Positions 5,461 through 32,000 of a stretch of DNA of 32,000 nucleotides are shown piece after piece (position 1 is the first letter of the stretch; each line of letters opens with the position of its first letter). The translations under genes were made by a program, and so were the position numbers. This stretch comes from an uncultured Lachnoclostridium sp. (lineage in GTDB: Bacteria > Bacillota > Clostridia > Lachnospirales > Lachnospiraceae): contig CAMMSL010000011.1 in assembly GCA_946499505.1 (NCBI GenBank), forward strand, positions 1 to 32,000, in the 5' to 3' direction. The notes under the pieces are model-generated. The model saw only the letters and a list, made by a program, of their open reading frames with translations, was not told where the DNA came from and made no database searches.

Positions 5461-5486
5461 AATATTATAAAGGAGAATAGTTTTAA

Positions 5487-7545: not shown

Positions 7546-7546
7546 T

Positions 7547-9015
7547 CAAGTTTTGTGTAAACTGAAAAAACTGATATAAGATATGTCATTAGTTACTTTA
7601 GGCAGAGCCAATTTTTTGAGGTTCTGCCCTTTCTTGTATTATAATGCAGTTCCCAGACATGTCAAGCAGGGCTGGCTAACCCAGCCCTCCTAGACGGGAA
7701 ACTGCTTATAATCCGGATAGCCTTTCTTCAAAGAAAATCTCCAGCTGCGAATGGATCTGTCCCCAATCTTGTCGGTGGCCTGTCCATTTTTTCGTGATAT
7801 CCATCATGGCCAGATACAGCATTTTTAAAAGACTCTCATCGGAAGGGAACACTGTCTTGGATTTTGTGACTTTCCGGAGCTGGCGGTTAAATCCCTCAAT
7901 TGCATTGGTAGTATAGATCAGACGGCGTACCGCTTCCGGGTACTTAAAATAAGTCGAAAGATTCGCCCAGTTATCTTTCCAGGATTTCGCTATTTTCGGG
8001 TATTTTCCGCTCCATTTGTCATCAAAACTGTCCAGCTCTGCTAATGCGATTTCTTCTGTTGGAGCCGCATATACACGTTTTAGATCAGCCATCAGGGGCT
8101 TGATCTCCTTATAGGAAACGAACTTCGTTGTATTCCGGATCTGATGAATGATGCATTGCTGGATTTCTGTCTGAGGAAATACCGCCTCGATTGCCTGAGG
8201 AAATCCTGTCAGCCCATCCACACATGCAATCAGGATATCTTCTACCCCGCGGTTCCTTAGCCCGTTCAAAATGGAAAGCCAGAATTTCGCGCTTTCGTTT
8301 TGGCCCACATACATGCCAAGCACGTCTTTATGTCCTTCCATGTCAATCCCAATGGCGATATAAACCGCACGTTTTACAATCCGGCCTTCATTGCGCACAT
8401 GGTAATGGATGGCGTCCATGAAAACCACGGCATAAATCTCTTCCAATGGCCTTTCCTGCCATTCTTTCACAATGGGAAGAATCTTATCAGTGATCCGGCT
8501 GATGGTGCTGTCAGAGATTTCGATGTCGTATAGTTCACGCATATGGCTTTCAATATCATTCGTGGTCATTCCTTTGGCATACATAGAGATGATCTTTTCC
8601 TCCATGTCCTGAGTGACAGTATTCTGGTATTTCTTGACAATCTGCGGTTCAAACTCGCCTTTCCTGTCCCTGGGGATGTCGATTTCCATGTCTCCATAGC
8701 TGGTATGCATTGTTTTCTGAGAATGTCCATTTCTGGAATTATCCGTTTCCTTGTTACGATAATCATACTTAGAATAGCCTAATTCCTCGTCAATCTCCTG
8801 GTCCAGAGCACCTTCCAGAATGATGGACATCATATCCCGCATGATGGAGTTAACATCTGTCCCATCTTTGACTTTAACATTGTTTTCTTTCATGTAGTTG
8901 CCCATCATTTCTCGAAGAGCTGCTTTTTGTGGGGTATCCTTTTTCCTTGCCATAAAATAAACCTCCAAACTGGTAAGTCTATCTTACATCAGTTTGAAGG
9001 TTTACACAAACTTTG
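7547..9015 (-). mobile_element. IS256-family insertion sequence (~1.47 kb) with imperfect terminal inverted repeats
   Basis: The left end caagttttgtgtaaactgaaaaaactgat matches the reverse complement of the right end (ccaaagtttgtgtaaaccttcaaactgatg). It encloses a complete IS256-type transposase. The boundaries are approximate to a few nt. Confidence 0.8.
7706..8953 (-). CDS. IS256-family (Mutator-type) transposase
   Basis: The product MARKKDTPQKAALREMM…DEELGYSKYDYRNKETDNSRNGHSQKT…MYAKGMTTNDIESHM…VFMDAIHYHVR…ACVDGLTGFPQAIEAVFP…QQCIIHQIRN… is characteristic. GGAGG lies 8 nt upstream of the ATG at 8953. Confidence 0.95.
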   Translation of the reverse strand: MARKKDTPQKAALREMMGNYMKENNVKVKDGTDVNSIMRDMMSIILEGALDQEIDEELGYSKYDYRNKETDNSRNGHSQKTMHTSYGDMEIDIPRDRKGEFEPQIVKKYQNTVTQDMEEKIISMYAKGMTTNDIESHMRELYDIEISDSTISRITDKILPIVKEWQERPLEEIYAVVFMDAIHYHVRNEGRIVKRAVYIAIGIDMEGHKDVLGMYVGQNESAKFWLSILNGLRNRGVEDILIACVDGLTGFPQAIEAVFPQTEIQQCIIHQIRNTTKFVSYKEIKPLMADLKRVYAAPTEEIALAELDSFDDKWSGKYPKIAKSWKDNWANLSTYFKYPEAVRRLIYTTNAIEGFNRQLRKVTKSKTVFPSDESLLKMLYLAMMDITKKWTGHRQDWGQIHSQLEIFFEERLSGL

Positions 9016-9198
9016 GGATACTCCCATTTTAGCCATTTTTCGCAAAATATCTTCCCTTGGCTTCCTTTCCCCGGATTCGTATTGAGCGATACGGATATCA
9101 GCGGAGTTCTCGGAAAAGCCGAGTGCAAGACCAAGCTGCTTCTGTGTAAGATGATTTTTGTTTCTTAAGTGCTTAATTTTTTCTCCAAAAGTGATCAT
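9016..9198 (-). pseudogene. XRE-family HTH regulator, 3' end truncated by IS256 (the tail of ORF 8989-9198 is read from the IS inverted repeat)
   Basis: KIKHLRNKNHLTQKQLGLALGFSENSADIRIAQYESGERKP is a Cro/C1-type HTH. The last ~8 codons (QSLCKPSN) lie inside the IS256 right inverted repeat. Confidence 0.75.
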
Positions 9199-9279
9199 AA
9201 TAATAATTCTCCTCTCTGTGTGTTGTGTATTGGTTGGTATTAAGATGCCGATATATACGGCGTCTCTGATTGTAAAAGT

Positions 9280-9693
9280 TTATTTTCCAGTACTGCCAAA
9301 GGCTCCGGTGCCACGTTCAGTGCCAAGATCCAGTACAAAATCGGCAATAATCACAGGAGTGATGACCAGCTGGCCAATTCGGGTATCCTTCTTGATTGTC
9401 TGCCGGATATTGCTTACATTGCTGACAATGGCATGGATTTCACCACGATATCCGGAATCGATGGGCGGCAGTTCGCATACCAGACCTTTGACGGCCAGGC
9501 TGCTCCTGGGAAACACATATCCTGCGTATCCGTCAGGGATTTCCAGTCCAAATCCCAGTGGTATTTTTATGATATCACCGGGGTTCAGAGTACAGTCAAA
9601 GGGAACATATACATCCGCTCCGGCATCATTTTCATGAGGTCGGAAGGGACAATGTTCTTTGGAGACTCCAAAATCAATCAGTCGTATTTTCAT
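9280..9693 (-). CDS. dut: dUTP diphosphatase (trimeric dUTPase)
   Basis: All five dUTPase motifs are present: DAGADVY, PRSSLAVKG, IDSGYRGE, RIGQLVI and RGTGAFGSTG. Confidence 0.95.
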   Translation of the reverse strand: MKIRLIDFGVSKEHCPFRPHENDAGADVYVPFDCTLNPGDIIKIPLGFGLEIPDGYAGYVFPRSSLAVKGLVCELPPIDSGYRGEIHAIVSNVSNIRQTIKKDTRIGQLVITPVIIADFVLDLGTERGTGAFGSTGK

Positions 9694-10457
9694 GAGAGTT
9701 CACCTCCCATGAGAAGCGGATAATCCCGTAAGATAATATCAGCCGGAGTAAGGGATCGTTCAAGAGGATTTCTGCAACTCATTTTTCCTTCCAGGCATTT
9801 TCCACGTTGGCAGAATGGACCTGTCAGTTCCGGAAGAAAAAGTACCGGGCTTAAATCATACAGATCCTTCCAAATATTCAGGATCACGATTCTCATTTCA
9901 TCCGTGTTGCGTCTGCAGGAACGCTGCCCGATCATATGTTTCCACTGGTAAGGGGTCGCACTGATAAGCAGAACATTTCTTAACCCCTGTGGTGTCAGAT
10001 ATCCTGCCGAGTCGTGGCTGATGCCGGTTTTGCAGAGGCGCTCATAATTATCCATATCGGTCTGGCAGCTTTTTTCATATAATTCTTTGATAGCCGCCGG
10101 TGCGGTGAGGATCTCATAGGGTATTGCGAAATCTGCTTCCCCGGAATAGTTGCTGTACTGGAGGGATGCGCTCATGAATTTTACCTCATTCTGGTGCCGG
10201 GTGATCTGGGAAAGAAATCTCCGGCTGGCGCCTACTACAGCTACTGTAATCACGGCAAATTTCTGTATGGCAGGATGCGGGAGTTGTCCCATATTTTTTA
10301 CGGTATCATTAGTAAAGGACTGATTGTACAGTCGGATCAGATCTTCCATGTTGTGGATCAGATGCCCGCGCTGTGTCAGCCTGGCTGCAAATACCATCGT
10401 CTTTTCAGCTTCGCTAACGGCGGAGCAGTTCAGGATTTTTGTTTCAATTCTGTTCAT
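9690..10457 (-). CDS. thyX: ThyX-like FAD-dependent thymidylate synthase homologue with a divergent signature motif
   Basis: HPAIQKFAVITVAVVGASRRFLSQITRHQ…SASLQY occupies the position of the ThyX RHR…SxRY motif. AGYLTPQGLRNVLLISATPYQWKHMIGQRSCRR…EMR and GPFCQRGKCLEGKMSC match ThyX C-terminal features. It has an ATGA overlap with dut. Confidence 0.8.
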   Translation of the reverse strand: MNRIETKILNCSAVSEAEKTMVFAARLTQRGHLIHNMEDLIRLYNQSFTNDTVKNMGQLPHPAIQKFAVITVAVVGASRRFLSQITRHQNEVKFMSASLQYSNYSGEADFAIPYEILTAPAAIKELYEKSCQTDMDNYERLCKTGISHDSAGYLTPQGLRNVLLISATPYQWKHMIGQRSCRRNTDEMRIVILNIWKDLYDLSPVLFLPELTGPFCQRGKCLEGKMSCRNPLERSLTPADIILRDYPLLMGGELS

Positions 10458-10770
10458 AAGTACCCTCCTCTTTGATGATCGCTGCCAGCAGGAAGAGATA
10501 GTTCAGGCTGTCGGTGATCTTCTCATCCCATAATTCTTTTGTGAAGGAAGTATTCTTGGCATAACACATATCATATAAAGATACGATATGTTTTGCCATC
10601 ATCCCGACAAGAGCCCGCTGGGGCGTGCAGTCCTGAAGAGAAGCGGCGATCCGGAAAGCGCTGAGTCTGTCTTCGCGGTCGCCGGTATATTCTTTTTTCT
10701 TCATCCGTAATGTTTCTTCGCATTTATTGACCTGATCTGCAAAGATCAGTCTAAATTCTGATTGTGTCAT
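10444..10770 (-). CDS. DUF1599 / all-alpha MazG-like (nucleotide-modification-associated type) small protein
   Basis: KKKEYTGDREDRLSAFRIAASLQDCTPQRALVGMMAKHIVSLYDM…EKITDSLNYLFLLAAIIKEE fits the pattern I remember for this family (…DYG…D.LSNFR…G…KL.RL…E…D…NY..LL). This is a motif-level call only. Confidence 0.5.
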   Translation of the reverse strand: MTQSEFRLIFADQVNKCEETLRMKKKEYTGDREDRLSAFRIAASLQDCTPQRALVGMMAKHIVSLYDMCYAKNTSFTKELWDEKITDSLNYLFLLAAIIKEEGTYEQN

Positions 10771-12422
10771 AATGATTCTTCTTTCCTTTCTTTCTGTGAG
10801 TTGTGATGTGCTGCTGATTGAATGGGAACTTTTTCTGTCTCCATTGCCGTTCTGTCAAGAATGGCATCTACGTTATAGGAAACAGTCTCCAGTTCTGTGC
10901 AGCGGCTTCTTAGTTCTTGTAATGCCTGTTTCTGGGAACTGATTTTATCCTGCAGGTTCTGTTTGCGGGATTTTAATGATTTCATTGAAAGCATTTTCCC
11001 GTCAGTATAGAAGCTTTTCAGCCAGTCCCTGGCCTGTTCATATGCCTGCAGTTCAGAAGCATGCTCACTGCGGAATTTCTTTTTGCTTCTGGATCGTATG
11101 AATTCTGTATATGTTCCTTTAGATGAAAAGTACTGTCCTGTGTAGTGAATCTGCGAATTTAATGTCTTCAATTCTGCAGAGAGTTCATCTAAACTTTCTT
11201 GTGCCTCATTCAGTTTTGCACTTGCCTCCGATATGATCCTGGACAGGTTTTCTCTGGTGTCATAACCATGTTCCTGAATATAGATCAGGGTATTCGCCAT
11301 TTGCTGCAGATTGGTGATCTTAACTTTACGGGCATAAGCTTCACTCTGCATAGCTTTAACATTTGTCTGCAAATCAACCACAAGACGTAGATGTGTCCGA
11401 TAGTAGAAGATAGCAGTTGGATCTTTGTGGTAATCGCCATGGACAGAATGATGTGTAGTTGTTCTGTGTTCTGGCTGGATCCCATTATCGTTTTGGAGAA
11501 ATCTCTTTTCCAGGTGTTCCATGCCATAGTCTGTTCCCAGTGCTTTTTCAGTGATCCTGAGATCACGATCCGGATGCAGATATCTATATCTTCCTCTTTG
11601 CAAAATCACGGATATATTGTAATTTTCCAGAAGAAGAGATTGAAACTCTTTAAAATTTCTGGCTGATCCAGAGCATTCATCAATCGCCTTCCGGAGAAAA
11701 TCCTTCTTTGTCTGGAATGTTGTGGCCGTTGGTTTGAGACCTTTCTGTACAATTTCCTGATTAATCTGTTCCAGTTTTTTCTGTCCTCTGGTTATTGCAC
11801 GAAACTCTGCTTCTGTCACTTTTTCCGGAGCAGGAGAAAGAAGATCAACCTGATGTAGTCCTTCCCGCTCACACATGGCCATGACTTCCTTTTTCAGATG
11901 TTCCAGAAATCGGTTTGTGGACCGATGCTTATAGCCGGCCTTTTCTTCATTTGGCTTATCCATATAGTTCTGGCGTGCCACGGCATTTTTGCGGACACTG
12001 TTGATCACGATATGGGTATGGATGTTGCCGGAATGGTTTCCGCCGTCTGTGTGGGTAACCACCACCGCCTGATAGCCTGGGAAATTCTTTTTTGCAAATT
12101 CCAGGCAAAGCTCCTGTGCCCTTTTCCCAGTAAGCCCACATTCCGATACGTCCGCTGGATCGAAACTGATGATGTAATGGTGACTTTTTAATTCGTTTCG
12201 CCTGCGGTTTTTCTTAAATGCTTCATTTGTCATTCTGCATTCAATATCAAATGTATCAGGATTACAGTTGAGCCCGTCCAGATAGAATTCATCCCGGAGA
12301 ATTTTCTGTCCCAGTTCATTTTGAAGCATCTTGCCGGTTTTCTCATCATGCTGAAACAGCAGATACTCCATTGTGTCAGAATAATTGGCGTTATGACTTT
12401 TTATGTGTTTGATAACTGCCAA
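10767..12422 (-). CDS. Mobilization relaxase (MobA/VirD2-type, Relaxase/mobilisation nuclease domain) with a long coiled-coil C-terminus
   Basis: The histidine triad is HTDGGNHSGNIHTHIVINS, and HHYIISF lies upstream. I place the start at the TTG at 12422 (MAVIKHIKS…), 5 nt after AGGTGA; the ORF track starts at 12482. Confidence 0.9.
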   Translation of the reverse strand: MAVIKHIKSHNANYSDTMEYLLFQHDEKTGKMLQNELGQKILRDEFYLDGLNCNPDTFDIECRMTNEAFKKNRRRNELKSHHYIISFDPADVSECGLTGKRAQELCLEFAKKNFPGYQAVVVTHTDGGNHSGNIHTHIVINSVRKNAVARQNYMDKPNEEKAGYKHRSTNRFLEHLKKEVMAMCEREGLHQVDLLSPAPEKVTEAEFRAITRGQKKLEQINQEIVQKGLKPTATTFQTKKDFLRKAIDECSGSARNFKEFQSLLLENYNISVILQRGRYRYLHPDRDLRITEKALGTDYGMEHLEKRFLQNDNGIQPEHRTTTHHSVHGDYHKDPTAIFYYRTHLRLVVDLQTNVKAMQSEAYARKVKITNLQQMANTLIYIQEHGYDTRENLSRIISEASAKLNEAQESLDELSAELKTLNSQIHYTGQYFSSKGTYTEFIRSRSKKKFRSEHASELQAYEQARDWLKSFYTDGKMLSMKSLKSRKQNLQDKISSQKQALQELRSRCTELETVSYNVDAILDRTAMETEKVPIQSAAHHNSQKERKEESL

Positions 12423-12786
12423 TATAATCACCTGCCAATCGAAGCACTTCTTTCCGCAGCGCATAAAGTTCTGCAATTGCACGTTCTATCTCCTCCTGCA
12501 TGGCAAGAGAGCGTTCCCCACCACTGTTAAAATGCCTGGCGATCTGGTTCAGGTTGGATCCGATTTTCCCATATTGTGCGAGAAGTGATTTGACCTCCTC
12601 GCTGTCAATTACAATCTGGTATTTCGGAGTCAGTTTCCTGTTTAAGATCACGTTCCGGATGAAGTCTGATCTTGTCATCCTGCATTTTTCAGCCCGGTCA
12701 TCTAATACAGATAGTTCTATATCCGTCAACCGGAGGCAGATGATGTGTGTGCGTAGCTGTTCATTATTCTTTTTGATCTTTTTCAT
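12391..12786 (-). CDS. mobC: MobC-type relaxosome accessory protein
   Basis: The RHH-like N-terminus is LRLTDIELSVLDDRAEKCRMTRSDFIRNVIL and the MobC motif is GKIGSNLNQIARHFN. It lies directly upstream of the relaxase and overlaps it by 32 nt. The RBS is GGAAGGAGGAG. Confidence 0.9.
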   Translation of the reverse strand: MKKIKKNNEQLRTHIICLRLTDIELSVLDDRAEKCRMTRSDFIRNVILNRKLTPKYQIVIDSEEVKSLLAQYGKIGSNLNQIARHFNSGGERSLAMQEEIERAIAELYALRKEVLRLAGDYIGSYQTHKKS

Positions 12787-12836
12787 ACTCCTCCTTCCAC
12801 TGCGTGATAAATGGAGCCGCCAACAGCGGTGCCATT

Positions 12837-12897
12837 CACTGAAATGCCGGCTGTCCCTTCCGGATAGATTTCAGTGCTGCGCCCAACATTCTGTTGG
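12837..12897. other. Candidate oriT (inverted repeats upstream of mobC)
   Basis: cactgaaat (12837-12845) pairs with atttcagtg (12868-12876). It is followed at once by ctgcgccc, then ccaaca-ttc-tgttgg (12883-12897). A further hairpin atgggga/tccccat lies at 12967-12987. Confidence 0.45.
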
Positions 12898-13267
12898 AAG
12901 CCAATATAATTCCGATACATTTTTGATCACTGCTGGATAAAGAAATGTATGGGAATTGCCGAGGGTATGGGGAAACGGAATCCCCATCAAGAGCCCGACC
13001 ACGGAGAATGCAAAAGTCAGAAAATCTGCTTTTGTATTACGGGGTGGATCTTGCTCTTTGAAAATTCAAACCCTCTCATTAATAGAAACGAAAAGGGCTT
13101 GTTTTACAGTGTGGATCATGAAAAATTTCAAATTATTTTTTATTTGGACTGTCAAAAATAATCAAAAAAAGCTAATCACAGACGCTGTAAAATTCCCCGA
13201 TTTCCTTTCTATATATGAAGAGGCTAATATCATGGCCCTTCGTATTAATGAATGGAAAGAGGTATGC

Positions 13268-13453
13268 ATGATGGCAGAGAAAAGGTGTTACACAGTAGCA
13301 GAATTACAGGAAATTCTTGGAGTCAGCCGACCGACAGTTTACAGCCTTCTGAAAAGAAATGAATTTCGCTGGATCCAGTTGGACGGCGGAAAGTACCGGA
13401 TCTCCAAGAAAAGTTTTGACGACTGGCTGGATAAACAGCCTTCTGAAGAATAA
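13268..13453 (+). CDS. Excisionase-like HTH_17 (MerR-superfamily) DNA-binding protein
   Basis: YTVAELQEILGVSRPTVYSLLKRNEFRWIQLDGGKYRISKKSFDDWLD. The start is uncertain: ATGs at 13232, 13268 and 13271 each follow a purine-rich RBS. The upstream part of ORF 12956-13453 looks non-coding. Confidence 0.75.
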   Translation: MMAEKRCYTVAELQEILGVSRPTVYSLLKRNEFRWIQLDGGKYRISKKSFDDWLDKQPSEE

Positions 13454-13536
13454 TTTCCATATGAAAAAAGTTCATCGACATAGTAACGCTATTCTTATAT
13501 TTCCGTTATCCTTTCAGCAGGAAGGGAGAATTGATT

Positions 13537-14532
13537 ATGAATAAAAAGGAAGAATGGATGAAAGAAGAATACCAGGATATGATCGAGGCCATTGAATCCC
13601 ATAGTCCATACAAAAGAAAACCATCTCCTCAAAAGAAATGGATGAGTGTAGCGGAAATGGGAGAACTGTTAGGACTTAAGAAGACGGATCGGTACTGGCT
13701 TCTTCATAAGAATGTATTTGAGTCCAGAGAGATTGCCGGCAAGCTGCGGGTCAATATTGCCAGTTTTGAAAAGTGGTATGCCAATCAGGTGAAATATCAG
13801 AAAGTGACCGGGGAAGAGCCGGGACTGGAATTAAAAGAATGGTCCTTTTCTGTACGTGATATTGCGCAGCTTTTGGAAATTGAAGAAAGCGTTGCCTATG
13901 ACCTGATTAAAAGGGAAAAGCTTGAGACAGTTACGATCGATTACTGGAAGCGGATACCGAAAGATGTATTTTGGAATTGGTACAACGGACAGACGAAGTA
14001 TCAGACAGCTGAGGATCGTAAAGCAAAGAGAGAATTATATGAGGCAACCATCAGTATGCCGGATATGGCGAGACTGCTTGGTGTTAGCAGAGGAACTGTT
14101 TATACTTTGCTGAAAAGCAGAAAATATGGAAAATATTTTTCTACAGTTATTATTGCTGATCAGAAACGGATCACAAAAGAAAGCTTCCAGAAATTTCTTG
14201 ATGAGCAGGATGAGTATCAGTTGTCACCCTGCAATGATTATAAAGAACTTGCTATGGAAGAAAATATAGCATTGGCGAATTACCGACGAAAGAAACTTTT
14301 GCAGACCGGAGATCGGAGATGTAATGGGAATCTTAATTATCTGACTCCGGAAGAAGCAGCACTGATGGCAAAGGTTTCAAGATCCATGATTGTAAACTGG
14401 TACCAGAGGGAAGAATTTCCAATCATACATATTGGAAACCGGGTACGGATCTGCAGAAAAGAGTTTGAAGCATGGCTGGAAGAAAGGAGAAAGAAGAATG
14501 GCGTCCATACAGGAACGAAACCACAAGTATAA
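13537..14532 (+). CDS. Protein made of four tandem excisionase-like HTH_17 repeats
   Basis: Four ~75-aa units each read W/Y-x-S/T-…-A-x-LLG…-Y-…-I-…-F-x-x-W, for example WMSVAEMGELLGLKKTDRYWLL…FEKWY. The other three are WSFSVRDIAQLLEIEESVAYDLI…FWNWY, ISMPDMARLLGVSRGTVYTLL…FQKFL and YLTPEEAALMAKVSRSMIVNWY…FEAWL. The ATG at 13537 lies 8 nt after GGGAG. Confidence 0.8.
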   Translation: MNKKEEWMKEEYQDMIEAIESHSPYKRKPSPQKKWMSVAEMGELLGLKKTDRYWLLHKNVFESREIAGKLRVNIASFEKWYANQVKYQKVTGEEPGLELKEWSFSVRDIAQLLEIEESVAYDLIKREKLETVTIDYWKRIPKDVFWNWYNGQTKYQTAEDRKAKRELYEATISMPDMARLLGVSRGTVYTLLKSRKYGKYFSTVIIADQKRITKESFQKFLDEQDEYQLSPCNDYKELAMEENIALANYRRKKLLQTGDRRCNGNLNYLTPEEAALMAKVSRSMIVNWYQREEFPIIHIGNRVRICRKEFEAWLEERRKKNGVHTGTKPQV

Positions 14533-15898
14533 AGTGGTCTATTATTATAAGAATGATGCGGGCGAAAGAAAGCAAAAATGGGAAACATATGATACAAAGG
14601 CGGAAGCCCGCAAACGCAAGAAGGAAATTGAGTATAAGCAGGAGTTAGGAACATTTGTTGCACCTAAGTGTACCTACCTGTCGGATCTTCTCGATGAATA
14701 TGTTTTTATTTATGGAACAAAAGCCTGGGTAATGTCTACATATCAGGGAAAAGTTGGCCTGATCAGGAATTATATCAAGCCGATGATAGGTAAAGTGAAA
14801 CTTTCGGATTTGAATACGCATTTTATAGAAAAATACTATCAGACACTTTTGGAGACACCGGCTGTTGTCAATCCGATGACCAAAAAACCAAAAAGCGAGT
14901 ATGTTACAACAGGAACGATACGGGAGATTCACAAGCTGCTCCGCAACTGCTTTGAGCAGGCAATTAAATGGGAACTGATGGAGAAAAATCCCTGCCAGCG
15001 GGCGACTGTTCCTAAACATACGCCTAAAAAGCGCGAGATATGGGAAGCAGACACTATGATGCACGCAATGGATGTATGTGTTGATGAGAGAGTTGTCCTG
15101 GCCTGTAATATTATTTTTGCCGGTACACTCCGTCCCGGCGAGGTCACGGCGCTTTCCTGGGACGCTATGGATATTTCCATGGAAGCGATTGATGAGGATC
15201 GGGCTTATATCGTTATCAATAAAGAATTGCAGAGAGTAAGTAAGGAGGCTTTGAAAGCATTGGATGGAAAAGATGTACTCCTTGTATTTCCAGAAACCAG
15301 AAAATCCAACAAAACAGTCCGTATTTTAAAAAAGCCAAAAACAGAAGGCAGCGAAAGAAAAGTTTTCATCCCGCGAACTGTGGCGCTTATGCTTGTCGAG
15401 TGGAAGAAGAAACAGGATCTGGAAAAAGAAGTAATGGGGGATGAATATATGGACTATAACCTGGTACTGGCAACCCCCTATGGACTTCCTGTCGGTGAAG
15501 ATGTGATCTTGAATGGATTGAAGAAACTTATTGCTGAAAACAATCTGCCTTCTGTAGTTACACACAGCCTCCGGCATACCAGCGTTACTTATAAGCTGAA
15601 GCTGAATGGTGGTGATATCAAGGCTACGCAGGGAGATTCCGGTCATTCCCAGGCCAATATGATCCTGAATGTTTATTCTCATATCCTGGATGATGACAGG
15701 AGGAAAAATGCAAAACTTTTTGAAAAAGCATTTTATGAAAAGAAAGAACTTGATCCGGATATCCACCAGAAGATGCCGGAGAATATGCTGCAGGTGCCAG
15801 AGGGAGTGGATCCGGAATTGCTTGGAAAAGTGCTGGCTGACCCGGAGATGGCTGCGCTGCTGGTATCGATGGCATCAAAAATGAACAGTAAAGTGTGA
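14498..15898 (+). CDS. Tyrosine recombinase / site-specific integrase
   Basis: The N-terminal arm-binding type sequence is MASIQERNHKYKVVYYY…. The catalytic region contains RPGEV, HSLRHTSVTY and GHSQANMILNVYSHI (the final Tyr). The ATG at 14498 lies 8 nt after AAGGAG and overlaps the end of the 4xHTH gene by 35 nt. Confidence 0.92.
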   Translation: MASIQERNHKYKVVYYYKNDAGERKQKWETYDTKAEARKRKKEIEYKQELGTFVAPKCTYLSDLLDEYVFIYGTKAWVMSTYQGKVGLIRNYIKPMIGKVKLSDLNTHFIEKYYQTLLETPAVVNPMTKKPKSEYVTTGTIREIHKLLRNCFEQAIKWELMEKNPCQRATVPKHTPKKREIWEADTMMHAMDVCVDERVVLACNIIFAGTLRPGEVTALSWDAMDISMEAIDEDRAYIVINKELQRVSKEALKALDGKDVLLVFPETRKSNKTVRILKKPKTEGSERKVFIPRTVALMLVEWKKKQDLEKEVMGDEYMDYNLVLATPYGLPVGEDVILNGLKKLIAENNLPSVVTHSLRHTSVTYKLKLNGGDIKATQGDSGHSQANMILNVYSHILDDDRRKNAKLFEKAFYEKKELDPDIHQKMPENMLQVPEGVDPELLGKVLADPEMAALLVSMASKMNSKV

Positions 15899-16007
15899 TC
15901 AAGATAGACACGGAATCTGTATTTGCTTATAATGAAAGTATTAGTTTGAGTTATTTTTGTTTGTTGATTTTTTAGAAAGAAGATCAACAGAAAAATGGAG
16001 GTATGTT

Positions 16008-16448
16008 ATGCTGAGCATCTATCTGGGGCAAATGGAAGAGGCAATCTATTATCCGCCTGCTTATTTTAATAATACGTATGATGATGAGTGGATCACAGAT
16101 CCCCTGACTGTAGAAATGATAAAAGATGTAGATAAATCAGAAGTCATCGGTCCTCATCTTATAGAGAGTCCTGTATTGGGCCCGATTTCTGTAAAAGAGA
16201 TATCAGGCGGTGTAAAAACATTGATCTTGATGGCTTTTGATGATTCAGGAAGAATTTTTAATGCATCCGCTTGTGGCAACAATTGTGCGAAATGGATTCT
16301 GGAAATCGGAAAAAGGAAGGATCTGACAATTAATCTGCGGCATATTATGAATTTTGGAAAAGAGCCTTTTGAAATCAAAATTCTTAACAATGGGGAAATG
16401 GTTCAGGATCTTGATCGTTTTATAGCGGTGGCCGCTAAGTACGTGTAG
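16008..16448 (+). CDS. DUF4869-like small protein (146 aa), function unknown
   Basis: The sequence MLSIYLGQMEEAIYYPPAYFNNTYDDEWITD…EISGGVKTLILMAFDDSGRIFNASACGNNCAKWILEI…LTINLRH matches my recollection of DUF4869 proteins. The ATG at 16008 lies 6 nt after GGAGG; the ORF track starts at 15957. Confidence 0.6.
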   Translation: MLSIYLGQMEEAIYYPPAYFNNTYDDEWITDPLTVEMIKDVDKSEVIGPHLIESPVLGPISVKEISGGVKTLILMAFDDSGRIFNASACGNNCAKWILEIGKRKDLTINLRHIMNFGKEPFEIKILNNGEMVQDLDRFIAVAAKYV

Positions 16449-26144: not shown

Positions 26145-27111
26145 AGATAATTATATGGAAACAGCTTATAATAAACCGTTTATTAAAAACAGAGCAGATC
26201 CACAGATTTATAAAAGTGATACAGGAATCTACTATTTTACAGGTTCTGTTCCCGAATATGACAGAATTATTCTCCGAATGGGAAAAACACTTTCGGTTCT
26301 TGCTGATGCTAAAGAACGTATTATATGGCGTAAACATGAAACAGGAGATCAAAGCATTCATATATGGGCTCCTGAACTGCATAAGCTGTGGGGAAAATGG
26401 TATATCTATTATGCAGCAGGAGATAAAGATGATATATGGAATATCCGACCATATGTATTAGAGTGTACTGGTGATGACCCTTATATGGATGAATGGCGAG
26501 AAGTTGGACGTATGCAGGCAGCTAAAAATGACGAATTCTCTTTTAAGGCTTTCTCACTCGATGCAACAGTCATGCAGTACAACAGAGATTATTACTATAT
26601 TTGGGCCGAAAAAACAGGAGTTGGAAAAATGATCTCCAACCTCTATATTGCTAAAATGGAAACACCAAATAAACTTGCTACAGATCAGGTGCTGCTTTCT
26701 ACACCTGACTATCCATGGGAAAGACACGGATTTTGGGTAAATGAGGGACCAGCTGTTTTAAAGAAAGATGATAAAATTTTTCTGACTTATTCCGCGAGTG
26801 ACACAAGTCAGGCCTACTGTATGGGAATGCTTTCTTTAAAAGAAGGAGCAGATATTCTGGATCCTCAGAATTGGAAAAAAGAACGGACACCTGTTCTTCA
26901 GACAGATCAGTCCGCAGGAATTTTCGGACCCGGACATAACTCTTTTGTAAAGTCGGATGATAACAAGACTGATTTATGTGTATTTCATGGAAGAATGTAT
27001 GATGAGATTAAAGGAGATCCATTATATGATCCAAATAGACATACTATGATTTTGAAAATAAAATGGGATAATAATATACCGGTTTTTGATTTTAGAAATA
27101 TGCTTAAATAA
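26137..27111 (+). CDS. GH43 glycoside hydrolase (arabinofuranosidase/arabinanase type)
   Basis: RADPQIYKSDTGIYYFTGSVPEYDRIILR, IWAPELHKLWGKWYIYYAA and WVNEGPAVLKKDDKIFLTYSAS are five-bladed-propeller GH43 motifs. It overlaps the GH51 gene by 8 nt. Confidence 0.85.
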   Translation: MNKDNYMETAYNKPFIKNRADPQIYKSDTGIYYFTGSVPEYDRIILRMGKTLSVLADAKERIIWRKHETGDQSIHIWAPELHKLWGKWYIYYAAGDKDDIWNIRPYVLECTGDDPYMDEWREVGRMQAAKNDEFSFKAFSLDATVMQYNRDYYYIWAEKTGVGKMISNLYIAKMETPNKLATDQVLLSTPDYPWERHGFWVNEGPAVLKKDDKIFLTYSASDTSQAYCMGMLSLKEGADILDPQNWKKERTPVLQTDQSAGIFGPGHNSFVKSDDNKTDLCVFHGRMYDEIKGDPLYDPNRHTMILKIKWDNNIPVFDFRNMLK

Positions 27112-27404
27112 AGCATTCGCAACGCTTCTTGAAGGAATCTTTGTATCCTGTATAGATCATCATAATTCCTTATATAAACTATAATATTTATGATATTGGT
27201 CTGGACAATGTATTCTATATACTTCAGTGAAGTATGCTAGGTGGAGCAACAAAAGAAGAAATCGTGTTTATCAGTATCAGGTTTATAGATTCGGTTCAAA
27301 TTGCAGATGCGGATATGCATCAAACACTTTGGAATCTCCCACACAAGAGTATCGAAAGACATCTCAGGGTGTATGATTTTTTATTTATATTACTATTTGA
27401 ATAG

Positions 27405-27437
27405 GTGAAAGCTTTGAGTTAAGCTTTCATCTTTTTT
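27405..27437 (+). terminator. Rho-independent terminator
   Basis: tgaaagctt (27406-27414) pairs with aagctttca (27421-27429) across a 6-nt loop, then C+TTTTTT (27431-27437). Confidence 0.75.
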
Positions 27438-27540
27438 AATTCCTATACATTGTTATTTAAAAATACCTTAAGAATCTTTACAGGACATATTAAAAAACAT
27501 CAATCATAATGAACCCATCTTAAAAAGACGAGGTGAAAAT

Positions 27541-29094
27541 ATGATTAAACCAGATCAGTGCAGACAGAAAACAAACATTCTTGACTATCTGGAGCAGACA
27601 GCAGAGTGTTACAGATACAGTACAGCGGTTACAGGCGTTGACGGCGAGTTCACGTGGTATGAGTTTACCGCGATGGCGAGAAAGATCGGCAGCGGTATCA
27701 GCAGGAGAGTATCTCCGGGCAGTCCGGTTCCTGTGATGATGGAGAAGAGCCAGCTCATGCTTGCGGCTATGCTCGGAGCAGTATATGCAGGCTGCTTTTA
27801 TGTTCCGGTGAATCCGGACAACCCACCGGAGAGGCTGAAGAAGATTTTCCGGACGCTGCAGCCGGAGATCATTATAGCGGACCGTAATATACAGGAATTC
27901 CTTACGATGGAAAGTATCTGTGCCGGATTCGATAAAGAAGAGTACAGCATAATTTCAGCGGAAGAGCTCGTGAAGGAGGATGCGGATCCGGAGCGCCTTG
28001 CAGCGATCCGGAATGCATCGAGAGAGACAGATATCCTGTATGGTATTTTTACATCCGGCTCTACCGGGACGCCGAAGGCGGTCGCGGTAAGCCACGGGGC
28101 AGTTATCCGTTTTATCGGACATTTTACGAAGATATTCGGCATAAGTCACGAAGACGTGATCGGCAACCAGGCGCCCTTTGACTTTGATGTATCGGTAAAG
28201 GATATCTACTCATCCCTGATGACAGGCGCGGGGCTGGTGCTGATACCGAAAGAATATTTCTCTACGCCGCCGAGGCTTCTGGACTTCCTGTGTGAGAAAA
28301 ATGTTACGACGCTGACGTGGGCGGTATCGGCACTGACACTTGTCTCATCTCTGAAAGGATTGAGATACCGCATTCCGGAGAAGGTGAATAAGATCATGTT
28401 CAGCGGTGAGGCAATGCCGCCCAGGCAGCTGAGGATCTGGCAGGAAGCTCTGCCGGACGCCCGTTTTGTCAACTTGTACGGCCCCACGGAGATTACGTGC
28501 AACTGTACGTATTATCCGGTTGTCCGAATGTACGAGGACAGGGAGAAGATACCGGTGGGAAATGCATTTCCGGGCAGGACAGTATTCCTTCTTGATGAAG
28601 ATGATATTGAGATTGCTGAGCCGGGAAGACAAGGTGAGATCTGCGTGGCGGGAGAATCTCTTGCTCAGGGATATTATAGGAATGAGGAACAGACGAAGAA
28701 GCAGTTTGTCATGTATCCGGTCGGCGGCGGTGAACCTCAGAGAATATACAGAACCGGGGATATGGGATATTACGATGAAAAAGGCAGGATCATATTTGCC
28801 GGGAGAAAGGATTTCCAGATCAAGCACATGGGACACCGGATCGAACTGGAGGAGATCGAGAGCGCCATGAACGCCGTGGAAAATGTACAGCGAAGCTGCT
28901 GTGTATTTCAGGAGGAGAAAAACCGGATCGCAGGCTTCTATATGGGAGAGGCGGAGCCGTCGGAGGTACGGAGAAAGCTGAAAGAGAAGCTGCCTGTGTA
29001 TATGGTTCCGCCAAAGCTGATACGGATGCAGGTTATGCCTCTGAATAAAAACGGAAAGACGGACAGGGCATATCTGAAGAGATGGAAAGAGTAA
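27541..29094 (+). CDS. DltA-like stand-alone amino-acid adenylating enzyme (carrier-protein ligase)
   Basis: The adenylation core motifs are FTSGSTGTPKAV (A3), NLYGPTE (A5), YRTGD (A7), GRKDFQIKHMGHRIELEEIE (A8) and PLNKNGKTDR (A10). The DltA-like APFDFDVSVKDIY includes the Asp that binds a substrate amino group. Confidence 0.88.
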   Translation: MIKPDQCRQKTNILDYLEQTAECYRYSTAVTGVDGEFTWYEFTAMARKIGSGISRRVSPGSPVPVMMEKSQLMLAAMLGAVYAGCFYVPVNPDNPPERLKKIFRTLQPEIIIADRNIQEFLTMESICAGFDKEEYSIISAEELVKEDADPERLAAIRNASRETDILYGIFTSGSTGTPKAVAVSHGAVIRFIGHFTKIFGISHEDVIGNQAPFDFDVSVKDIYSSLMTGAGLVLIPKEYFSTPPRLLDFLCEKNVTTLTWAVSALTLVSSLKGLRYRIPEKVNKIMFSGEAMPPRQLRIWQEALPDARFVNLYGPTEITCNCTYYPVVRMYEDREKIPVGNAFPGRTVFLLDEDDIEIAEPGRQGEICVAGESLAQGYYRNEEQTKKQFVMYPVGGGEPQRIYRTGDMGYYDEKGRIIFAGRKDFQIKHMGHRIELEEIESAMNAVENVQRSCCVFQEEKNRIAGFYMGEAEPSEVRRKLKEKLPVYMVPPKLIRMQVMPLNKNGKTDRAYLKRWKE

Positions 29095-29130
29095 AAATGA
29101 ATTGTTCATACAGATGAAAAGGAGAAATTT

Positions 29131-30345
29131 ATGCAGAGAGAACAACTGGAATACGCGGCGGCACGTTACGGAACCCCGCTCTATATATTTGATCTGGATA
29201 TGCTGAAGAGACAGGCGGACAGACTGAAAGAGGCGCTCAGGAAAGAGGCAGGGCTGTGCTATGCCATGAAGGCAAACCCGTTCCTGACAAAAGAAATGGC
29301 GGAGCAGACGGACCGAATCGAAGTATGCTCAATGGGAGAGTTTGAGATATGCAGGCGGCTGGAAATTCCGCCGGAGAAGCTCTTCATATCGGGAGTGCTC
29401 AAGAAAAAAGAAGATATATACAATATACTGAATACATATGGAGATAAATGCATATATACAGTGGAGTCTGTAAAGCAGCTTCATTATTTCCTTGAGTGGA
29501 GCGACGCCCATATGAAGAAACTCAGGCTTTATCCAAGACTGACCAACGGCAGTCAGTTCGGTATGGACGAGGACACAATGCGCAGTGTGTTCGGAATCGT
29601 AAATATGTGTCCGTATCTGGAAATTGAAGGTATTCATTATTTCTCGGGAACACAGAAACGTCATCTGAGACAGTTCCGACAGGAGCTTGAAATGCTGGAC
29701 AGCTTTCTCCTGAAAATGAGAGACGAGTGGAAAGTGCGGATCACGCATCTGGAATACGGTCCGGGTACCGCGGTGCCGTATTTTCGTGGAAAAGAAGCGC
29801 AGACATACACAGATGAAGGACTGGAGGCCTTAAGAGAAGCAATCCGGTCCATGCAGTGGAAAGGCAATGTGACAATAGAGCTGGGAAGGGCATTTGCAGC
29901 GGAATGCGGATATTATCTCACAGAGGTCAAAGATGTGAAGAAAAACGGCGATACGAACTACTGTATTGTAGACGGCGGTAATCATCAGCTCAATTATGAC
30001 GGACAGATCAAAGGCATGTATCAGCCGGGGATACAGCTCATACCGGGAGAGCAGGCAGGGCACAAGAAGCCATGGACCGTATGTGGAACGCTTTGTACGA
30101 TGAATGATGTGCTATGCAGTAATGTAGAACTGTCAAATGTCCGGACCGGAAAAGTGCTTGTATTTGAGCGTACCGGCGCATATTCTGCGATGGAAGGAAT
30201 GGCTCTTTTCCTGAGCCATGCGCTGCCCGCTGTCGTGTCATACAGTAAGAATGCGGGATGGACTGTGCTGAGAGAGCATCATCCTACTTATCAGTGGAAT
30301 ATGCCGGGTGATGATCTCAATAAACAGATATATAAAGTAATTTAA
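29131..30345 (+). CDS. Fold-type-III PLP-dependent decarboxylase (Orn/DAP/Arg decarboxylase family 2, LysA/BtrK-like)
   Basis: GTPLYIFD, the PLP-lysine motif YAMKANP, IHYFSGTQ, ELGRAF, a CG…C region (VCGTLCTMNDVL) and TGAYSAMEG are collinear with DAP-decarboxylase-type enzymes. Confidence 0.8.
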   Translation: MQREQLEYAAARYGTPLYIFDLDMLKRQADRLKEALRKEAGLCYAMKANPFLTKEMAEQTDRIEVCSMGEFEICRRLEIPPEKLFISGVLKKKEDIYNILNTYGDKCIYTVESVKQLHYFLEWSDAHMKKLRLYPRLTNGSQFGMDEDTMRSVFGIVNMCPYLEIEGIHYFSGTQKRHLRQFRQELEMLDSFLLKMRDEWKVRITHLEYGPGTAVPYFRGKEAQTYTDEGLEALREAIRSMQWKGNVTIELGRAFAAECGYYLTEVKDVKKNGDTNYCIVDGGNHQLNYDGQIKGMYQPGIQLIPGEQAGHKKPWTVCGTLCTMNDVLCSNVELSNVRTGKVLVFERTGAYSAMEGMALFLSHALPAVVSYSKNAGWTVLREHHPTYQWNMPGDDLNKQIYKVI

Positions 30346-30382
30346 ATTTGCTTACAGAATCAAGAGAAGGAGAAATATTACA

Positions 30383-30610
30383 ATGGAAAAATTAATGGAA
30401 ATCTTAATGGAAATCGACGACAGCATTGACTATGAAAAGGAGAAAGCCCTGATCGATGACAGGCTTCTGGATTCTTTCGGTGTGATCACACTCGTATCCG
30501 AACTGGAGGACGCGTTTGACATTGACATTGAAGCATCTGAGATGACGCCGGATAATTTTAATTCCGCAGAATCAATCTATAACATGGTGAAAAGACTTCA
30601 GGAGAACTAG
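30383..30610 (+). CDS. DltC-like aminoacyl carrier protein (75 aa)
   Basis: The phosphopantetheine attachment context is LLDSFGVITLVSELEDAFDIDI. It has DltC-like size and a strong RBS (GGAGAA). Confidence 0.85.
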   Translation: MEKLMEILMEIDDSIDYEKEKALIDDRLLDSFGVITLVSELEDAFDIDIEASEMTPDNFNSAESIYNMVKRLQEN

Positions 30611-30613
30611 CAT

Positions 30614-32000
30614 ATGGCATATCAATCATTGGTATACGGGTTTGTATTTCTTCCGCTGTGTCTGCTGGTATACCAGATCGCGCCGCAGAAATGGCGCAGG
30701 AGAGTGCTGCTAGCGTTCAGCTATCTGTTTTTCTGGCTTCTCAGCGGAAAACTGATCGTATATCTGCTCGGGACAACTGTGTTCGTACACTGTATCGGTA
30801 TCTGGCTGGAGTGGCTCAGATCAGAACAGAAGACAGCTCTTGCATCTGCGGAAAGATGCGAAAAGAAGAGGATAAAGGGAATATATCAGAAGAAATCCAG
30901 AAGGGTGCTGGCATTCGGCGTACTCCTGCTCATTGGAATTCTTGCATATCTGAAATATTACAATTTCTTTGCGGGCAATCTGAACGGGATCTTCGGGAGC
31001 GCGCTGCCGTTTACTCTGGAAGAAAAAAATATCCTCATGCCGGTGGGAATCTCGTTTTATACGCTGCAGGCTATCGGCTATCTGGCAGACGTGTACTGGG
31101 GAAAGATCCGTGCAGAGGAAAAACTGGAGAATACGGCCCTGTTCCTCGCATTTTTCCCTCAGATCATGGAGGGGCCGATCTGCCGCTATTCGGATACAGC
31201 AGGTACACTTTACAGCGGAAAATCTCTGGAGATCGACAATCTGACAGAAGGATATATCCGGATATTCTGGGGACTGTTTAAGAAAAAGGTGATCGCGGAC
31301 AGGCTGGCCATCGGCGTGGATGCAATATTCGGGAACTATACGTCATACAGCGGAGCTATGACTGTATTTGCCGCTGCGGCATATACTGTGCAGCTCTACA
31401 TGGAATTTTCGGGATGCATGGACATTATTATCGGAAGCGGACAGCTCTTCGGAGTAAAACTCCCGGAAAACTTCCGGCAGCCGTTTGCGGCTCAGAGTGC
31501 GGCGGAGTTCTGGCGAAGATGGCATATTACGCTGGGAACATGGTTTAAGACATACATTTTCTATCCGGTTTCCATGTCCGGGCCGGTGAAAAAGTGGAAT
31601 CAGTACGGAAGGAAACATTTTGGAAAATATATTACTATGCTCGGGACGTCCGCTATGGCTCTTTTTCCCGTATGGCTATGCAACGGACTGTGGCACGGGG
31701 CGAGATGGAGTTATATCTTCTACGGGATGTATTATTTTACACTGATCCTTTTGGGGATTGCAGCGGAACCTTTGCGTGACCGGGTGCTGGAGCTTTTGCA
31801 TATCGGAGAAAAGTCCGCAGGGCTTAAGGTTGTGAGAATCGCAAAGACATGGCTTATCATATTTACCGGAGAACTGTTCTTCCGGGCGGACGGACTGCGT
31901 GCGGGAATCTATATGTTCCGCAGTATATTCCGGAATTTTGACCTTAACAGCCTTTTTGACGGAAGATTGCTGGAACTCGGGATGAGCAGGGCAGATCTGA
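30614..32000 (+). CDS. MBOAT-family membrane O-acyltransferase (DltB/AlgI-like), 3'-incomplete at the window end
   Basis: My own translation from the ATG at 30614 (8 nt after AGGAGA) has no stop to nt 32000. It reads MAYQSLVYGFVFLPLCLLVYQIAPQKWRRRVLLAFSYLFFW… and MPVGISFYTLQAIGYLADVYWGK… It continues FFPQIMEGPI…SAAEFWRRWHITLGTWFKTYIFYP (catalytic His)…NGLWHGA. It is absent from the ORF track because it is open-ended. Confidence 0.88.
   Translation, partial: MAYQSLVYGFVFLPLCLLVYQIAPQKWRRRVLLAFSYLFFWLLSGKLIVYLLGTTVFVHCIGIWLEWLRSEQKTALASAERCEKKRIKGIYQKKSRRVLAFGVLLLIGILAYLKYYNFFAGNLNGIFGSALPFTLEEKNILMPVGISFYTLQAIGYLADVYWGKIRAEEKLENTALFLAFFPQIMEGPICRYSDTAGTLYSGKSLEIDNLTEGYIRIFWGLFKKKVIADRLAIGVDAIFGNYTSYSGAMTVFAAAAYTVQLYMEFSGCMDIIIGSGQLFGVKLPENFRQPFAAQSAAEFWRRWHITLGTWFKTYIFYPVSMSGPVKKWNQYGRKHFGKYITMLGTSAMALFPVWLCNGLWHGARWSYIFYGMYYFTLILLGIAAEPLRDRVLELLHIGEKSAGLKVVRIAKTWLIIFTGELFFRADGLRAGIYMFRSIFRNFDLNSLFDGRLLELGMSRADL

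Follow-up and report, generated by a model that had tools for sequence, protein, structure and literature searches.

A conserved five-gene operon of Lachnospiraceae that may combine Dlt-like acylation of the cell envelope with amino acid decarboxylation on a carrier protein

Introduction

What does a pyridoxal phosphate (PLP)-dependent decarboxylase do in the middle of a gene cluster that otherwise resembles the D-alanylation (Dlt) system of Firmicutes? This question is raised by positions 27,541 to 32,000 of a 32,000-nucleotide stretch of DNA from an uncultured Lachnoclostridium sp. (GenBank assembly GCA_946499505.1, contig CAMMSL010000011.1, positions 1 to 32,000 of the forward strand), which we refer to as the window. 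D-alanylation by Dlt is the textbook means by which Firmicutes make their surface less negatively charged, and it serves as a drug target. A preliminary description of the window had noted a ligase, a PLP enzyme, a carrier and an MBOAT protein in this region and had proposed, by analogy with the butirosin enzyme BtrK, that a dicarboxylic amino acid is loaded and decarboxylated there, on the carrier or beforehand, and then exported to a surface polymer. We found that the four genes belong to a conserved five-gene operon, and we consider it probable that this operon acylates a polymer of the cell envelope by means of a Dlt-type donor pathway combined with decarboxylation on the carrier. Each kind of component is already known; new here is the combination of Dlt/MBOAT-SGNH envelope acylation with thiotemplated decarboxylation. 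A search of the literature for this operon found no description of it, and NCBIfam contained no model specific for it.

Gene content and conservation of the operon

The window carries four genes of the operon on the plus strand, and the reading frames placed them where the preliminary description had. A stand-alone DltA-like amino acid adenylating ligase of 517 amino acids (aa) (27541-29094, +) is followed by a fold-type III PLP-dependent decarboxylase of 404 aa that we assign to a BtrK-like subfamily (29131-30345, +), by a DltC-like carrier of 75 aa with its phosphopantetheine site at Ser31 in LLDSFG (30383-30610, +), and by an MBOAT acyltransferase (30614-32000, +), whose first 462 codons, out of a total of 528, lie in the window, the frame being open to the window end with no stop. 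The MBOAT gene, which runs off the window, is indeed missing from the list of open reading frames (ORFs), where out-of-frame ORFs are given instead. The intergenic gaps measure 36, 37 and 3 bp and a search for internal terminators between the four genes gave no convincing one, in agreement with the tight operon that had been claimed.

The remainder of the operon could be read from public contigs, 23 of which carried an identical decarboxylase. On the longer ones (L001-L006) the complete MBOAT comprised 528 aa, and a gene for a 318-aa protein without Pfam assignment started 36 bp after it. The DltD, DHHW or SGNH partner that was to be looked for downstream was thus found in the form of a membrane-anchored protein with a predicted SGNH fold, described below.

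A profile search with the decarboxylase returned relatives in 384 species-level genomes. We inspected the 80 best loci, all of them from Lachnospiraceae (Mediterraneibacter, Blautia, Schaedlerella, Sporofaciens, Extibacter, Merdimonas, Dorea, Bariatricus and Roseburia lenta), by tblastn with six candidate proteins. The order ligase, decarboxylase, carrier, MBOAT, SGNH protein was kept in essentially every sufficiently long locus, down to about 50% identity. One exception (L028) had the MBOAT and SGNH genes relocated upstream, and two others (L059 from an uncultured Blautia, and L074) kept ligase, decarboxylase and carrier and were missing MBOAT and SGNH protein. The flanks of L059 match those of L061, which holds the full five-gene set, and the state of L059 therefore looks like a deletion of the last two genes. 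The truncated module may be in decay or may serve a different acceptor.

More distant relatives were drawn from an exhaustive decarboxylase profile search, which yielded 653 clusters (50% identity) at E <= 1e-30. Four of the six distant members that we looked up held the same five genes (decarboxylase about 35% identical to the distant query P0269), two of them in the standard order (L089, L090), one as ligase, carrier, MBOAT, SGNH protein, decarboxylase (L088) and one as SGNH protein, MBOAT, ligase, decarboxylase, carrier (L091). Conservation of the arrangement, one of the checks proposed for the locus, was therefore found in nearly all of the 80 loci, and the gene set in four of the six distant relatives. 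A linkage that persists through permutation of the gene order is strong evidence of functional coupling, and it excludes a lysA gene that is a neighbour by chance.

In the remaining two distant members (L087, L092) the decarboxylase was encoded in unrelated clusters with no MBOAT. The L087 cluster encoded a 93-aa carrier-like protein, an unrelated AMP-ligase, a cytidylyltransferase (CTP_transf_3), a GFO/IDH/MocA oxidoreductase, and radical SAM and pentapeptide-repeat proteins, and in L092 radical SAM, PALP and methyltransferase genes lay beside the decarboxylase. These clusters may represent other thiotemplated or sugar-modification pathways. A further family member, the representative-library match P0185 (1046 aa), had the decarboxylase at residues 16-394, followed by a long linker rich in Ala, Ser and Thr, a transmembrane segment and, towards the C-terminus, a large region of repeated domains, an odd arrangement for a cytoplasmic PLP enzyme.

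Substrate activation by the ligase

The ligase matched PF00501 (AMP-binding, E 2e-63) and the amino acid adenylation model TIGR01733 with 336 bits, above the cutoff of 317, and stayed below the cutoffs of both DltA models (TIGR01734, 284 bits, cutoff 560; NF003417, 297 bits, cutoff 476). In direct comparison it scored 203 bits against DltA and 149 bits against the loading enzyme VinN, and it is clearly built on a DltA-like scaffold. The core motifs of adenylation were intact.

The ten Stachelhaus positions (235, 236, 239, 278, 299, 301, 322, 330, 331 and 517 in PheA numbering) were mapped via conserved motifs and gave the specificity residues D216, V217, K220, T259, M286, S288, L312, C320, N321 and K506. 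Neither these pocket residues nor the motifs NQAPFDFDVSVKDIY, MFSGE, NLYGPTEITCNCT and NGKTDR varied among 77 orthologues and the four distant loci with all five genes. DltA (PDB 3e7w and 3dhv), with the motifs NQAPFSFDLSVMD, VWTSTPSF, F[ML]FCGE and NTYGPTEATVAVT, reads D L M T M/L C T V A K at the same positions. The two sets differ at six of the ten sites, including M to K at position 239, at the base of the pocket, and C to S at position 301. The comparison with DltA that had been proposed thus revealed an invariant set of residues that is not a DltA-type code. Cys at position 301 has reportedly been implicated, by Du et al. in 2008, in the selection of D-Ala by DltA. Lys at position 239 is a hallmark of Glu-activating domains of nonribosomal peptide synthetases (NRPSs), and the corresponding Lys220 in the pocket suggests an acidic substrate.

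Relationship of the decarboxylase to LysA and BtrK

The decarboxylase matched both PF02784 (Orn_Arg_deC_N) and PF00278 (Orn_DAP_Arg_deC). Its PLP lysine is K47 in the YAMKANP motif, as the preliminary description had recognised, and K47, H169, E250, R253, C322, D326 and Y351 were invariant across orthologues. The enzyme should be catalytically competent since these catalytic residues are invariant. Public databases name the orthologues variously 'alanine racemase', 'decarboxylase' and 'diaminopimelate decarboxylase family protein'.

The best NCBIfam match was lysA (TIGR01048), with 167 bits against a cutoff of 298. In structures of LysA, the distal end of diaminopimelate (DAP), with its carboxylate and amino group, is bound by the Glu of CES/CET together with the Arg and Tyr of RPxxY, and the motifs NDLxRPxxY, CE[ST]GD and YNxR of LysA were all replaced in the decarboxylase family. 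An alignment to solved structures showed several motifs that the family has in common with BtrK, which was the one reference for carrier-dependent decarboxylases in this comparison. These are QFGMDE where LysA has KFG[VL]D, GTQ where LysA has GSQ, VDGGxH[QH] plus an insertion where LysA has DAGMNDxxRPxxY, LCT where LysA has [IL]CE[ST], and FL[SG]HxxP (FLSHxLP in the family of the window) where LysA has YNxR. An AlphaFold2 (AF2) model of the decarboxylase with a predicted local distance difference test (pLDDT) score of 86 had BtrK as its best PDB match (7ru7, Foldseek E 1.6e-30, TM 0.84), and its top 50 structural neighbours were all decarboxylases. Judged by sequence, the enzyme is not LysA and would belong to a BtrK-like subfamily. 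The reading as the housekeeping lysA, which would have told against the proposal, is opposed by the missed cutoff, the replaced motifs and the conserved linkage to dlt-like genes, and the analogy with BtrK found support in the common motifs and in the best structural match.

The annotation of several orthologues as 'alanine racemase' by NCBI leads to another reading, namely that the PLP enzyme is a racemase or epimerase, or an unrelated lysA neighbour, and that the remaining genes perform ordinary Dlt D-aminoacylation. Alanine racemase is of the same fold type, and the enzyme gave a marginal match to the Pfam domain Ala_racemase_N (24.0 bits, cutoff 24.1). Both decarboxylase domains were matched, however, without a racemase among the top structural neighbours; the residues that define D-Ala selection in DltA are changed in the ligase; and linkage that outlasts gene-order permutation, together with the missed lysA equivalog cutoff, speaks against an unrelated neighbour. 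We consider this the least probable of the readings discussed here.

That lysA was the best NCBIfam match would also be compatible with a carrier-bound meso-diaminopimelate, loaded through one carboxyl group and decarboxylated at the distal centre to lysyl-S-carrier, so that the envelope would be lysylated. Lys220 could then hold the distal carboxylate and Asp216 the proximal amine. This is very unlikely in our view, as the DAP-binding residues (the Glu in CE[ST]GD, the Arg and Tyr in RPxxY) are replaced family-wide, and the DltA-derived pocket keeps the bulky residues M286 and L312, which would leave little space for a seven-carbon chain. Among the cargoes that had been suggested (Glu, Asp or DAP), the lysyl product from DAP is thus disfavoured by the loss of the DAP-binding residues, whereas Asp or Glu would fit Lys220.

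A different possibility concerns the order of events, with free Asp converted to beta-alanine, Glu to 4-aminobutyrate (GABA) or meso-DAP to lysine, and the product then loaded by the ligase for export by MBOAT and SGNH protein. Most characterised members of the Orn/DAP/Arg decarboxylase fold, as seen among the PDB matches, act on free substrates, and the gene order ligase, decarboxylase, carrier leaves the order of reactions open, so that the linkage data fit equally. Against this, the invariant Lys220 of the ligase would serve no purpose with beta-alanine or GABA and would repel lysine, the decarboxylase has BtrK-type motifs and no DAP residues of LysA, and experiments on its closest relatives from ligase-carrier contexts showed that these do not accept free amino acids (CtaF). 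We regard decarboxylation before loading as unlikely. Loading followed by decarboxylation on the carrier is favoured, because the Lys in the pocket argues that the substrate still bears a free carboxylate when it is loaded.

Carrier, MBOAT and SGNH protein

The carrier gave 40 bits with the DltC model NF003464 (cutoff 68), 27 bits with a second DltC model (cutoff 52) and 20.5 bits with PP-binding. Its closest solved homologues were the DltC chains of DltB-DltC complexes (8jf2_F, 6bug_A). The DS motif with Ser31 was invariant in 74 orthologues, within LDSFG here versus LDSMG in DltC.

The MBOAT matched PF03062 and scored 136 bits with the DltB model TIGR04091 (cutoff 375); its solved homologues were DltB only (72 bits). 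The predicted catalytic His304 in WRRWH was invariant, and both this residue and His361 in GLWHG lie inside the window. Beyond the window end the protein has a C-terminal extension that ends in ...VDMIYAGF with Tyr525. The C-terminus reads [LM]IYA[GNK]F in 68 of 69 orthologues and FMYEQF, PMYANF, FIYANF or FIYGNF in the distant loci. These endings, with the first position often L, M or P instead of F, are of the type of the acyl-shuttle motif FXYXXF, whose Tyr takes the acyl group over from the MBOAT and hands it to the SGNH partner (PMC12148441). Dlt has the motif on the microprotein DltX, and acyl-CoA-dependent MBOATs such as PatA bear it fused to their own C-terminus (PMC12148441). NgPatA ends in FIYANF, and the systems with a fused motif use acyl-CoA (acetyl) donors without a carrier protein (PMC12148441). 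A DltX-like microprotein was not found in the operon on any contig examined, and the only small ORF upstream, at 27234-27404 in the window, lacks FXYXXF. With the shuttle motif joined to the MBOAT's own C-terminus, no DltX would be needed. The prediction of a DltB-like MBOAT therefore stands in so far as DltB is the closest solved homologue; the protein is not a plain DltB, since it carries the fused motif. In terms of its predicted proteins the operon is a hybrid, fed by a carrier as in Dlt and equipped with a fused shuttle motif as in PatA/AlgI, with no DltX.

The fifth protein has a predicted N-terminal transmembrane helix, by which it would be anchored in the membrane, as well as invariant GDSE (Ser62) and GDH (D265-H266) motifs. 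In Pfam, 17 of 21 orthologues gave sub-threshold GDSL_2 matches, and the public name of the protein is 'SGNH/GDSL hydrolase family protein'. Single-sequence and profile searches against solved structures gave no match, and the assignment was made from an AF2 model (pLDDT 79), in which Foldseek detected an SGNH-hydrolase fold. The model matched TesA and GDSL lipases (E about 1e-4), PatB (3e-3) and, weakly, DltD (5e-3, TMq 0.41). The modelled structure thus points to an SGNH fold that is not recognisable as DltD.

These last two proteins bear on the question of whether the operon might instead produce a small secreted or membrane metabolite by a thiotemplated pathway, as for closthioamide or butirosin. 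Every characterised carrier-dependent decarboxylase belongs to a natural-product pathway, and the relatives in L087 and L092 cluster with radical SAM, methyltransferase, PALP or cytidylyltransferase genes and no MBOAT. In the family of the window, however, the partners are an MBOAT with a C-terminal acyl-shuttle Tyr and an extracytoplasmic SGNH protein, which is the signature of envelope-polymer acylation, and no condensation, ATP-grasp, transglutaminase, polyketide synthase (PKS) or NRPS genes were linked. A small metabolite as the product therefore seems highly improbable to us.

Proposed pathway

In the pathway that we propose, the DltA-like ligase would adenylate an acidic amino acid, most likely Asp via its beta-carboxyl group, with Glu via its gamma-carboxyl group as the alternative, and would then attach it as a thioester to the phosphopantetheine arm at the carrier's Ser31. 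The BtrK-like decarboxylase would strip the free alpha-carboxyl group on the carrier, yielding beta-alanyl-S-carrier (or 4-aminobutyryl-S-carrier). The MBOAT would move the amino-acyl group across the membrane, via His304, onto its own C-terminal Tyr525 at the outer face. From there the extracytoplasmic SGNH protein, with Ser62 and D265-H266, would take the group and esterify a surface polymer, which might be teichoic acid, a wall polysaccharide or peptidoglycan. Overall, the envelope would gain a cationic, non-alpha amino-acyl ester.

Within this pathway we favour Asp and a beta-alanyl product over Glu and a 4-aminobutyryl product. Asp216 and Lys220 of the ligase lie one helical turn apart and would suit the amine and carboxylate on the one carbon of a beta-linked Asp. 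Moreover, 4-aminobutyryl esters and thioesters tend to lactamise and beta-alanyl ones are stable, and the operon does not encode a protecting-group enzyme, which would fit the stable product. In butirosin biosynthesis, the tendency of the 4-aminobutyryl thioester to lactamise is the reason for gamma-glutamyl protection by BtrJ.

Several observations weigh against this pathway or parts of it. We infer the substrate from one pocket residue and from analogy, and the ten-residue code DVKTMSLCNK matches, to our knowledge, no characterised code. The conserved Asp216 would equally suit ordinary activation of an alpha-carboxyl group, and the ligase is no closer to VinN, an ANL enzyme that loads through the side chain, than to DltA, as the scores given above show. 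The decarboxylase is at best slightly more similar to BtrK than to LysA (92 versus 98 bits by sequence; Foldseek E 1.6e-30 versus 4e-29). A loop of about 15 residues, present in both, is moreover missing from it, which marks it as a distinct subfamily and could mean a different activity. Finally, the sequence searches linked the fifth protein to none of the DltD, PatB and AlgX families.

Comparison with known systems

The system most similar in overall design is Dlt of Firmicutes (DltA, DltC, DltB, DltX, DltD). Both feature a stand-alone ligase and a small carrier as donor, an MBOAT for the passage of the acyl group across the membrane and an extracytoplasmic SGNH-fold transferase, predicted as such in the operon. 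Among solved structures, DltA comes closest to the ligase motifs, DltC to the carrier and DltB to the MBOAT. The operon differs in that all four proteins fall below the NCBIfam cutoffs for Dlt, with the ligase pocket changed at six of ten positions, and in that a PLP decarboxylase is an obligate extra member. Furthermore, the FXYXXF-type motif is fused to the 528-aa MBOAT in place of a DltX, whereas DltB has no C-terminal shuttle motif, and the SGNH partner, of about 318 aa, cannot be recognised as a DltD.

The donor half of the operon resembles the modules BtrJ/BtrI/BtrK, CtaD/CtaE/CtaF, VinN/VinL/VinO and FlvN/FlvL/FlvO, each of which combines a loader and a small carrier with a PLP decarboxylase of the Orn/DAP/Arg family. 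In nearly all of the 80 loci and in four of the six distant relatives, a loader and a dedicated carrier were likewise encoded with the decarboxylase. BtrJ/BtrI/BtrK of butirosin biosynthesis turn Glu into 4-aminobutyryl-S-carrier, with BtrK acting as L-glutamyl-S-BtrI decarboxylase. CtaD/CtaE/CtaF of closthioamide biosynthesis in Ruminiclostridium convert Asp to beta-alanyl-S-carrier, and CtaF rejects free Asp (PMC7183216). VinN/VinL/VinO (vicenistatin) and FlvN/FlvL/FlvO (fluvirucin) use an ANL loader and carrier-bound decarboxylation (PMC11284099, PMC11350588). All of these known modules couple Glu or Asp to the carrier via the side-chain carboxyl group, and the alpha-carboxyl group is then removed there; experiments have shown that the decarboxylases BtrK, CtaF, VinO and FlvO accept carrier-bound Glu or Asp only (PMC7183216, PMC11284099, PMC11350588). 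VinN and FlvN are ANL ligases like the ligase studied here, and the Vin, Flv and clostridial Cta modules are precedents closer than, or complementary to, BtrJ/BtrI/BtrK. Unlike the operon, these modules feed antibiotic assembly via transacylases, PKSs or ATP-grasp iteration and use protecting groups; the operon would direct its output to an MBOAT/SGNH export pair and encodes a DltA-derived ligase and no protecting-group enzyme.

The export half shares with PatA/PatB, AlgI/AlgJ/AlgX and WssH the extra C-terminus of the MBOAT with an FXYXXF-type Tyr motif and a separate membrane-anchored SGNH partner. One distant MBOAT orthologue ends in FIYANF, a motif identical to that of Neisseria gonorrhoeae PatA. 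Unlike the PatA/AlgI-type systems, the operon encodes a dedicated ligase, carrier and decarboxylase, and the core of its MBOAT is closest to DltB.

An adjacent pair of an AMP-forming ligase and a PLP enzyme similar to DAP decarboxylase is also found in surface-polysaccharide loci, as the exosortase-A-associated pair TIGR03098/TIGR03099. This uncharacterised pair, a distant analogue, is part of PEP-CTERM/exosortase loci in Gram-negative bacteria, and we know of no linkage to an MBOAT. The scores of the window proteins were low, with 184 bits for the ligase against TIGR03098 (cutoff 592) and 153 bits for the decarboxylase against TIGR03099 (cutoff 478). LysA itself agrees with the decarboxylase in fold, PLP-binding residues and two-domain architecture. 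The two differ in that the lysA score of the decarboxylase (167 bits) stays below the equivalog cutoff of 298, in the DAP-recognition motifs, and in that the gene described here is embedded in a ligase/carrier/MBOAT/SGNH set.

Genomic context of the operon

On the longer contigs the SGNH gene was followed by a gene with rubredoxin-like and Glu_synthase FMN domains and then by LacI, phosphotransferase system (PTS) and GH32 genes. The first of these genes (L001:14109-15497) starts 45 bp past the SGNH gene and encodes a 462-aa protein in which an N-terminal rubredoxin-like zinc ribbon is fused to the Glu_synthase FMN domain. We considered it as a sixth member of the operon and rejected it, as it occurred in only about two of the 80 loci, in the closest relatives.

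In about 25 loci an OmpR-type response regulator and a HAMP histidine kinase were encoded directly downstream of the operon. In a clade of Schaedlerella, Sporofaciens and Extibacter (L032, L034-L036, L038, L047), genes for a DedA/VTT protein, a CDP-alcohol phosphatidyltransferase and a phosphatidylserine decarboxylase were located downstream, between the SGNH gene and the response regulator/histidine kinase pair. The latter two enzymes constitute a route to phosphatidylethanolamine. This neighbourhood suggests co-localised envelope-remodelling functions and fits an envelope role of the operon. A Bce-type peptide-resistance ABC transporter was dropped as a candidate conserved neighbour, the recurring ABC ATPase being paired with a CbiQ component of the energy-coupling factor (ECF) type.

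Upstream of the ligase, the window and contigs L001 and L003-L005 carry a sugar-utilisation cluster with arabinofuranosidase (GH51) and GH43 genes, while L002 and L006 carry lacto-N-biose phosphorylase, beta-lactamase-fold, AraC and DUF5107-TPR genes. Since strains with an identical decarboxylase differ upstream, the intergenic region before the ligase (about 27111-27540 in the window) is a recombination breakpoint and the boundary of variation. A terminator-like hairpin with a 12-bp stem and a 6-nt loop, followed by a T-run (27403-27442, +), marks the upstream edge of the block 100 bp before the ligase start, so that the block begins right after a terminator-like site, much as had been described; such sites were rare in shuffles of this region (0.4 expected). 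A 56-aa ORF (27234-27404), which is called as a gene on L003 and has neither a family nor FXYXXF, ends at this hairpin and may be a gene remnant.

The observation that the block is richer in GC than its neighbours was correct for the window (GC content 0.483 versus 0.382 in the remainder), and at third codon positions (GC3) values of 0.52-0.60 stood against 0.27-0.34 in the adjacent glycosidase and permease genes. Over 56 other loci, the difference between block and flanks averaged 0.005, and we dropped GC-richness as a general sign of mobility because the excess is absent there. As the excess is restricted to this lineage, it fits a lineage-specific acquisition and not a generally mobile island.

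Other features of the window

A patch of mobile-element genes at 7012-15898 has a GC content of 0.42-0.47, above its surroundings, and looks like an integrated mobilisable element. It encodes an IS110-family transposase fragment (7012-7512, -), a Mutator-family transposase (7706-8968, -), a ThyX thymidylate synthase (9690-10457, -), a MobA/VirD2 relaxase (10767-12482, -), two HTH_17 excisionase-like proteins (12956-13453 and 13531-14532) and a tyrosine integrase (14432-15898), and is followed by a gene for a DUF4869 protein (15957-16448). Nearer to the start of the window, a phnC/phnD/phnE-type phosphonate/phosphite ABC transporter (3048-5460) precedes a protein of the D-2-hydroxyacid dehydrogenase family that reaches no NCBIfam equivalog (5487-6491), and a LysR regulator is encoded divergently (1976-2935, -). 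We take the layout of 1976-6491 to resemble that of ptxABCD-ptxE phosphite-oxidation operons. A 513-aa protein (396-1937, -) had the NO VEIN C-terminal domain (PF13020) as its only match and belonged to no NCBIfam family.

Conclusions

The gene content of the operon suggests that commensal gut Clostridia, in a large group, equip their surface with a cationic substituent that is chemically different from D-alanine and would be made by decarboxylation on a carrier, a reaction so far known from antibiotic pathways only. It is possible, and we state this tentatively, that abundant gut Lachnospiraceae decorate a surface polymer with beta-alanyl or other omega-aminoacyl esters made by decarboxylation of carrier-bound Asp or Glu; thiotemplated decarboxylation would then be seen for the first time outside antibiotic biosynthesis, and the MBOAT would be the first that is carrier-fed and has a fused shuttle Tyr. 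If true, it would represent a new envelope modification, more resistant to hydrolysis than D-alanyl esters, which would tune surface charge and the interactions with the host or with antimicrobial peptides in the gut. The operon also bridges two classes that have been kept separate, carrier-fed Dlt with DltX and acyl-CoA-fed MBOATs with a fused motif (PMC12148441), and is therefore a natural test case for how MBOATs choose their donor. If the product is confirmed, it would be a new microbe-associated molecular pattern, and the operon would serve as its marker across hundreds of Lachnospiraceae species.

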